From positions 10,707 through 74,706 of the forward strand of contig CAIWGV010000046.1 in NCBI GenBank assembly GCA_903912365.1: a stretch of 64,000 bases of DNA, in the 5' to 3' direction. Below are positions 10,650-10,958 of the stretch, piece after piece. The notes under the pieces were generated by a model. That model did no database searches, was not told the DNA's origin, and saw only the letters and a list, made by a program, of their open reading frames with translations. Source of the DNA: an uncultured Alphaproteobacteria bacterium (GTDB lineage Bacteria > Pseudomonadota > Alphaproteobacteria > UBA7879 > UBA5542). Positions within the stretch are counted from its first letter, which is position 1. Every line of letters starts with the position of its first letter. The position numbers and the translations under genes are program-made.

Positions 10650-10958
10650 CCGCAGGGGGTTGTTTTATGGATTTACGGTTATACCAGCCCCAGAAAACTT
10701 CTAGTACGAGTGAAACAAAGGTCGAGGCTGACGACGTGGACATATACTTACATAAGAAAGCATGGCTAGACAGCTTTAAGTTGGATATAGGAATGAGGGA
10801 GGGCCGCCTATATCTGATAGGCAACCGGTGCCAGTCCCAGAAAACTTCTAGTACGAGCGAAACAAAGGTCGAGGCTGACGACGTGTACATGGGCGTACAC
10901 AAGGAAGCCGAGAGCCTGTAGTTTCGCGAAGTAATAGGTGTTTTATGGGGCTGGCATT
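10650..10958. repeat. Composite of the MITE-like palindromic repeat family: truncated copy (left arm ~10681-10744) plus complete ~128-bp copy (~10833-10958) in tandem
   Basis: ataccagccccagaaaacttctagtacgagtgaaacaaaggtcgaggctgacgacgtg occurs twice (10681 and 10833, ~95% identical). The element ends in gtttcgcgaagtaataggtgttttatggggctggca, the inverted complement of the left terminus (taccagccccagaaaac vs gttttatggggctgg). The listed six-frame ORFs at 10573-10921 are artefacts of this repeat. Confidence 0.8.

Follow-up and report, generated by a model that had tools for sequence, protein, structure and literature searches.

A palindromic repeat family of about 127 bp, probably of MITE type, with copies beside stop codons in an uncultured alphaproteobacterium

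Several gene gaps in a 64,000-nt stretch of alphaproteobacterial DNA (the window, ~45% GC) contain similar palindromic sequences, which raises the question of whether they form one family, how they arrived and what they do to the genes they adjoin. A first-pass annotation made from the letters alone had proposed a ~130-bp palindromic repeat family with terminal inverted repeats; the sequences it quoted are present, and intact copies measure 127 and 128 bp. This observation is confirmed: family A, as we call it, is a real family of ~127-bp hairpin-forming DNA repeats. A 46-nt pattern from its left arm has two matches at ≤3 mismatches against 0.00 expected (100 shuffles), and a repeat finder returned a 113-nt family of three copies (at 10684, 10831 and 22884) as well as a 35-nt core family of four, the addition being at 9293. 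Pairwise identity among copies is 81–86%. Six copies (four from the window and the metagenome copies L004 and L005) extend across the core block AACAAAGGTCGAGG, which does not vary among them, and 14–16 nt of core are identical across every copy, the internally deleted one included. The window holds five copies at four loci in 64 kb, every one on the same strand, and its GC skew is uniformly negative throughout.

One intact copy occupies 22882–23008 (+ strand, 127 bp, 145 bits with a covariance model) and reads TACCAGCCCCAGAAAA...GTCGAG-GTT-CTCGAC...TTTATGGGGCTGGTA. It fills the gap between the stop codon of an AEC/Mem_trans transporter gene (23009–23011, −) and a tRNA-Arg gene (22729–22805, −); the compact element had been recognised here before, at 22869–23003, and only its coordinates needed refinement. 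The second intact copy, at 10829–10956 (+, 128 bp, 140 bits), has the terminal dinucleotides TG...CA, not TA...TA, and its right end is directly adjoined by the stop codon of an OMP gene (10957–10959, −). It is directly preceded by a rearranged copy (10682–10828, +, 27 bits), whose left 60 nt are 95% identical to those of its neighbour; the right half is diverged or rearranged, lacks the hairpin fold and has CTAGACAG..TGGA in common with a fragment at 40535. A tandem pair thus lies within 10681–10958 as first described, but its leading member is rearranged in the right half and is not a simple truncation. Sequence and spacer alignment suggest a possible end-to-end remnant (TACCGCCCGCAG...GTTGTTTTATGGATTTACGGTTA) at 10640–10681 (+), an uncertain assignment that is partly common to the corresponding spacer of a relative (L013). 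The internally deleted copy, previously seen as a fragment at ~9299–9350, is larger, since a degenerate left end, the core and a right end are retained at 9276–9352 (+). Lastly, the solo right end reported at ~40535–40572 is indeed present, at 40535–40569 (+) in the mltB–atpC spacer, where it has a 19-nt exact match to the 10829 copy and lies between divergent gene starts. The claim that all copies are intergenic is true of four; the copy at 9276–9352 extends over the stop codon of rlmD and the codons just before it.

The ends of the intact window copies form an 11-bp perfect inverted repeat (14 of 16 positions overall) with the core CCAGCCCCA, and the two halves of these copies are 74–81% alike as inverted repeats over their whole length. 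TA stands at the termini of most family-A ends, the copy in L005 having AA...AG. RNA folding, suggested earlier as a check on the element, predicts a long stem-loop of −52 to −64 kcal/mol (z −5.4 to −8.8): the copy at 22882–23008 folds at −52.3 kcal/mol on the + strand (z −5.4) and −49.2 on the − strand, and that at 10829–10956 at −64.4 (z −8.8) and −51.6, respectively. In the consensus hairpin of the three full copies 93.5% of cells are paired, against 30–44% with a slid register, and both partners differ between copies at three pairs, the terminal change from TA/TA to TG/CA among them. As read from these sequences, the palindrome is real and offers no evidence for selection on the folded RNA, because covariation among the three full copies is no greater than in shuffles (99/500) and the full metagenome copy (L005) has decayed ends. 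Six-frame translations gave no peptide conserved between family-A copies. The element had been said to produce spurious open reading frames, and two exist, one of 84 aa from the tandem copies (10667–10921, +) and one on the opposite strand (10573–10902, −), their peptides being poorly conserved between copies. The 84-aa frame has no Pfam hit and is annotated as a gene in an ENA scaffold that is nearly identical (L010; BUCK21-1_SAMEA6872854 scaffold_86, 99.985% identical to the window over 20.6 kb); Logan run ERR4193932 carries the same DNA as the window. A micro-ORF following the core GAGG was considered and rejected, as its 12-aa peptides agree at only 4 of 12 residues between copies.

Comparison with relatives supports family A being an insertion, as judged from sites that are filled in one genome and empty in another. 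For example, in a JGI contig (L009) whose transporter is 87% identical, the stop codon is followed by tRNA-Arg within 50 bp and the element is absent. The empty site reads ...TTTAGTATACAATCTTAAAAACTTCTTGCG... (in longer quotation, ...CTCTTTAGTATACAATCTTAAAAACTTCTTGCG...), and the filled site of the window, on the − strand, reads ...AAATAG-TA[CCAG..CTGG]TA-TAAATGG...CTCAAAAACTTCTTGCG (in longer quotation, ...TTATTCAAATAG-TA[CCAG...CTGG]TA-TAAATGG...ATCTCAAAAACTTCTTGCG...). With the AGTA/TA context common to both, the extra DNA in the window amounts to the element and one TA, which fits a TA target duplication; this duplication is probable, from one comparison between genomes ~13% diverged in the transporter protein. 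The tail of that protein is LFSIQS* in L009 and LFK* in the window. Beside the element the window transporter differs by a 4-nt indel (23009–23025 against L009 1460–1481), and the common TAG therefore falls in frame exactly at the element boundary; without this TAG the reading frame would extend ~40 codons into the element.

At the OMP–rlmD junction the spacer is 32 bp in two relatives (L011, GCA_964515175.1, and L012), where it reads TCTAG|ATATTTCG...ATG, and 88 and 111 bp in L013 and L014, each of which has its own unrelated hairpin. The window spacer is ~324 bp longer than that of L011, and the extra DNA, directly 3' of the same FYKI* stop, consists of 10829–10956, 10682–10828 and the possible remnant at 10640–10681. 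The fragment at 40535 is likewise absent from the orthologous mltB–atpC spacer of L006.

An insertion at the other end of rlmD is old, on the evidence of the sequences compared. The rlmD stop codon (9339–9341, −) and the last two codons lie inside the right-end remnant of 9276–9352, and in L011 the gene terminates with CCGAGCCCATAAAACACCTATTATAG, 18 nt that match the right end of the 10829 copy exactly; at this place in L013 there is an end-to-end hairpin, complete over 50 bp (−31 kcal/mol). The RlmD C-terminus is ...F-x-R-P* in distant homologues and ...F-x-R-P-S-P* in the window clade, so the element supplied two codons and the stop codon. By the same reading the remnant is older than the arrival of the neighbouring YhcG gene, because L011 and L013 carry the remnant without YhcG.

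The first-pass annotation had also placed the copies at points where conserved gene order appears broken, which the relatives contradict, as the flanking gene pairs are syntenic. OMP–rlmD adjacency is retained in four relatives, with OMP–rlmD–Bax1 syntenic, and transporter–tRNA-Arg adjacency in L009, within a syntenic transporter–tRNA-Arg–Tim44–MltA run. Nor is the supposedly orphan atpC at the mltB junction a local rearrangement, because mltB–atpC–HIT–xerC–obg order is kept in three assemblies of a relative (L006–L008). The true local breaks are island genes absent from the relatives' syntenic regions, namely a YhcG-type PD-(D/E)XK nuclease gene (8155–9192) beside the 9276 copy and a Hypoth_Ymh protein gene (22092–22592) on the far side of tRNA-Arg. 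These two adjoin elements but are independent of them. A subtilisin-like protease gene (32996–34480) is a third such island, and the backbone around the three small islands is otherwise conserved.

A further feature of family A is its position relative to stop codons. Wherever a right end faces a gene end (a − strand gene in the window), it adjoins or runs into the stop codon of that upstream gene; there are four such cases, all in one orientation. The distance is 0 nt for the transporter (TAG|TACCAG) and for OMP (TAA|TGCCAG); the rlmD stop codon lies within the right-end remnant, and in L005 the stop is 4 nt from the terminal CTGG, or 2 nt if the flanking dinucleotide is counted as element. 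By a rough estimate, three to four independent placements within ~3 nt of a stop, in spacers of 30–100 bp, would have a chance probability of <<1 in 1,000. Selection is nonetheless a sufficient alternative to targeting, and the site just 3' of the stop may be the only one tolerated: the spacers are short and their downstream blocks are conserved between genomes (AAACTTCTTGCGAAATAAGG before tRNA-Arg and ATATT..AAATTCCTATAAGAAAG before rlmD), so purifying selection alone could leave only post-stop insertions. On the sense strand of the gene upstream, the best-conserved block of family A reads as a small hairpin followed by CTTTGTTTC; in the intact transporter copy it appears as GTCGAG-AAC-CTCGAC and then CTTTGTTTCG (22921–22935, −), a terminator-like match. 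Such matches are no commoner than in shuffled sequence, and the core stem is only 4 bp in most copies.

The region contains a second palindromic family, unrelated to the first, which we call family B. Its copies are at 62271–62383 (+) in the window, at 9347–9460 (−) in L011, with tandem copies to ~9800, and at ~1900–2012 (−) in L004, where it interrupts a family-A copy. The core is GAGTTTTGAG.CAGAACTAGGAAC.AGGA.CGACGCGTAG-N6-CTACGCGAG...ATGGCTCAAAAG, and each independent copy has a different, perfectly complementary outer stem of 9–10 bp (AATAACCCCA, ACAGGCCTAG and CTAACTAAG). The upstream stop codon is in or abuts the outer stem in 3 of 3 copies. Predicted folding energies of the family B strand are −39 to −49 kcal/mol (z −6.9 to −8.2); the complement, tested for one copy, folds much more weakly (−29.7, z −3.0). 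The ends of orthologous genes in these genomes have hairpins of different and unrelated kinds, which begin at the stop codon or extend across it, among them a 34-bp hairpin after OMP (L013 9006–9039), a 16-bp stem with the rlmD stop codon in its loop (L014 10555–10598) and, at ~1842–1895 in the window, the last four asnB codons, which pair with a downstream inverted copy. The tails of asnB diverge after ...QSWL between the window and L011. A general habit of hairpins at stop codons was rejected, as only ~5 of 48 genes have one and three of these are family A or B elements.

One might then ask whether at least two unrelated palindromic families, A and B (62271–62383), are targeted to stop codons or extreme 3' ends in a fixed orientation, beyond mere survival in compact spacers. 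They would rewrite the last codons and the stop and set a strong hairpin where translation terminates, and the outer stems of B would reflect insertion into hairpins or an inverted copy of the target. We consider such targeting unlikely, and we know of no stop-codon-directed mode of insertion described for bacterial MITEs. Were a census to confirm the position, it would point to target choice or to selection at the site of translation termination, a natural case beyond the REPs of E. coli. Liang, Rudd and Deutscher are said to have found in 2015 that REPs within ~15 nt of a stop can lower expression through ribosome stalling.

What kind of element, then, is family A? Table 1 of PMC2229807 describes bacterial MITEs as <200 bp long with inverted ends and TA termini; they duplicate their target, and their transcript is a long stem-loop. 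Family A is 127–128 bp and without a conserved peptide, has inverted ends, a predicted long stem-loop and dispersed copies that differ in presence or absence between genomes, and its empty sites are found in L009, L011–L014 and L006. As to TA, the copy at 22882–23008 has TA...TA and one extra TA in one filled/empty pair, and TG...CA and AA...AG occur elsewhere. Decaying MITEs typically show copies that are truncated, internally deleted or in tandem, as here. Repetition, inverted ends, filled and empty sites, decayed and nested copies and changed C-termini are all observed in these genomes. Because the element is small and non-coding, with inverted ends, TA, filled and empty sites, decayed derivatives and a stem-loop, the explanation that we favour, as probable, is a bacterial MITE, a DNA transposon that is non-autonomous, and we place family A, as a new family, in an already well-known class of small mobile elements of bacteria.

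On this view a transposase from another locus of the genome would bind the ends (core CCAGCCCCA, usually TA-flanked), and the element would be cut and pasted into TA dinucleotides. Our best guess at the mobiliser, acting in trans, is an IS630/Tc1-like enzyme, a suggestion made because of the TA alone. As surviving copies sit immediately 3' of stops in one orientation, the upstream transcript would run into the long hairpin with its small hairpin and T-rich tract, and a role as a weak terminator, or in stabilising the 3' end, is plausible. The window and ~190 kb of other loci yielded neither a transposase nor a full-length IS whose ends match. The IS5-like end on relatives' contigs was rejected as the parent element, since its ends differ from those of family A. 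A relative was assembled three times independently, and each of these contigs stops in the 3' end of one gene (L006 1–120, L007 1–85 and L008 1–30), ~2.3 kb upstream of topA. In the translated L006 stretch this gene looks, by eye, like an IS5-family transposase, and the assemblies would be broken there by a multi-copy IS. Copies of family A are 14–19% diverged and therefore give no sign of recent activity.

Other readings account for parts of this picture. The most conserved block of family A is internal (the core) and not at the ends, which is unusual for an element shaped by transposition only, and the palindrome extends over the whole length as in a REP doublet. Both the tandem clustering and the restriction of the window copies to one strand, under a uniformly negative GC skew, would suit a REPIN/BIME-like or other hairpin-dependent element, moved on single-stranded DNA by a RAYT/Y1-type or hairpin-targeting enzyme and not by a DDE transposase. 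The target duplication, weakly supported, leaves room for such a mode, and the outer stems of family B, different in each copy, suggest that insertion into existing hairpins occurs in the lineage. Against this, a GTAG or CGTC head is the mark of the two super-families of REPs (PMC3733652), and the ends TACCAGCCCCAGAAAA and TTTATGGGGCTGGTA have none. The family-A unit measures 127 bp and has a single internal core, not two REPs of 20–40 bp around a variable spacer, the comparison with the L009 empty site yields an extra TA, and no Y1 transposase (RAYT) gene was seen among the annotated ORFs scanned. We regard a hairpin-dependent element of this sort as improbable. An integron attC site was rejected altogether: attC boxes are RYYYAAC/GTTRRRY, which the ends do not fit, and the flanking genes are syntenic housekeeping genes. 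The sole tyrosine recombinase gene, putatively XerC/D by its position, lies within the conserved atpC–HIT–recombinase–obg block.

Function, with mobility secondary or extinct, could also explain the conservation. A hairpin or terminator carried from one gene 3' end to another, or a core that binds protein and is kept by selection, would agree with right ends that lie 0–4 nt from the upstream stop, or overlap it, in four cases in the same orientation, with a core of 14–16 nt that is identical in all copies and, in mRNA sense, combines a hairpin with a T-rich tract, and with the three pairs changed on both sides among three sequences. Yet terminator-like matches are no commoner than in shuffles and most copies have a stem of only 4 bp; nor is covariation above that of shuffles (99/500), and the ends of the metagenome copy are decayed. 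Moreover, the relatives' orthologous genes do without any copy, one fragment is flanked by divergent gene starts, and with conserved signals in short spacers purifying selection alone could leave post-stop insertions only. A cis-acting module of this kind seems to us rather improbable. That the copies are small RNA genes transcribed from the + strand would be in keeping with the better fold of that strand (−64.4 against −51.6 and −52.3 against −49.2 kcal/mol), which arises because several G-U pairs are common to all copies. These G-U pairs are invariant, however, so they may simply be inherited, no promoter-like site was found at or in the copies, Rfam gave no match, and truncated and rearranged copies persist, all of which makes small RNA genes very improbable.

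Family A works in the manner of ERIC, RUP and Correia elements but is a member of none of them. Among known systems, the ERIC/IRU/RU-1 elements of enterobacteria resemble family A in being 127 bp, imperfectly palindromic over their whole length and provided with short inverted ends and TA termini (PMC2229807). Both are intergenic; ERIC is co-transcribed with its neighbours, as family A would be, and has an orientation-dependent effect on upstream mRNA (PMC2229807). Family A differs in having no sequence similarity to ERIC (blastn, 5,426 E. coli genomes), an alphaproteobacterial host, ends with CCAGCCCCA and a right end that touches the stop. The RUP element of Streptococcus pneumoniae and other IS630-derived MITEs share the size (~107–130 bp), the inverted ends and, if family A does duplicate TA, insertion at TA; this group is, by analogy, the closest model for an element mobilised in trans by a transposase of IS630 type. 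The ends of RUP match IS630-Spn1, whereas family A has no known cognate IS. The Correia/NEMIS elements of Neisseria have a TA duplication, as family A may have, and a long hairpin transcript that is processed with neighbouring mRNAs, and they occur in shorter variants (107- and 155-bp forms), as family A does in its internally deleted copy. Their inverted ends, however, are 24–26 bp and they contain an IHF site, compared to ends of 11–16 bp and a different core in family A. The Rickettsia palindromic elements (RPE), also ~100–150-bp palindromes of an alphaproteobacterial host, can join coding sequence, to which the last two codons and stop of rlmD are a parallel. Compared by description, RPE lie in frame inside genes and are translated, whereas family A lies at or just past stops. 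REP/BIME/REPIN sequences are likewise extragenic palindromes with tandem clusters at gene 3' ends, but family A is without their GTAG/CGTC head, has a much longer unit and possibly duplicates TA.

Family A has a restricted lineage distribution. A metagenome scan gave two true further copies, both in the JGI metagenome Ga0315905: a full copy (L005) and a left half interrupted by family B (L004). About 90 kb of relatives whose flanking-gene proteins are 74–87% identical contain no full copy, only the rlmD-end remnant, and a 9.4-kb leftward extension of the window has no copy. A 23-nt core pattern run against 185,579 species-representative genomes found a chance match only, in a Pyrinomonadaceae MAG with no further similarity; viral contigs scanned with the A core, A left arm and B core, and plasmids and phages searched by blastn with family A, gave no match. 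In E. coli, whose genomes carry ERIC and REP (blastn, 5,426 genomes, 20,395 records, E≤0.01), there was no family-A match and so no similarity to ERIC. Rfam over the window reported only two tRNAs above gathering score, and the elements themselves had no match at E≤1. With three copies translated in six frames and joined as a bait protein, no spurious ORF of this origin appeared among the matches listed, and a literature search returned no palindromic element for Holosporales. The description of the family as previously undescribed is therefore plausible, there being no match in Rfam, E. coli genomes, plasmids or phages. The nearest named homologues of the window proteins are in 'Alphaproteobacteria bacterium' MAGs and Holosporaceae, at 46–54% identity, and these, like a GapR gene in the window, indicate an uncultured alphaproteobacterium.

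Apart from the placement at stop codons that is common to families A and B, family A is, on the MITE reading that we favour, an ordinary repeat of its type. It matters for annotation, as it yields false genes (the 84-aa frame has already been called publicly) and alters the true C-termini of the transporter and RlmD. Masking it would improve the annotation of uncultured freshwater alphaproteobacterial genomes, and its filled and empty sites are markers by which related populations could be separated.

Other repeats and palindromes were seen in these genomes. A third, short GC-rich repeat (...GGCGCGT.GC.CCTCCTC.GG.TGACG...) occurs in intergenic spacers of the lineage beside gene ends, at ~9215–9270 and ~10600–10645 in L014, ~1655–1700 in L009 and ~8085–8125 in the window. 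In the window, an 18-bp perfect inverted repeat, GTGGTTGATATTCAACCA-TTTAG-TGGTTGAATATCAACCAC (62202–62242), overlaps the start of a DUF4143/AAA_14 ATPase gene (60927–62216, −) and may be an operator. The topA stop codon falls inside a 14-bp perfect inverted repeat, CTAAGAAAAGATAA....TTATCTTTTCTTAG (30876–30907), between convergent genes, which is probably a bidirectional terminator. Finally, the gene at 13914–20291 encodes a 2,125-aa protein with many internal repeats of 700–800 nt and GLUG-like motifs; its counterparts in relatives measure 2,081 aa, 2,067 aa or more, and 1,300 aa, a TPS domain being present in the shortest, and the product is probably a fast-evolving surface or secreted adhesin.
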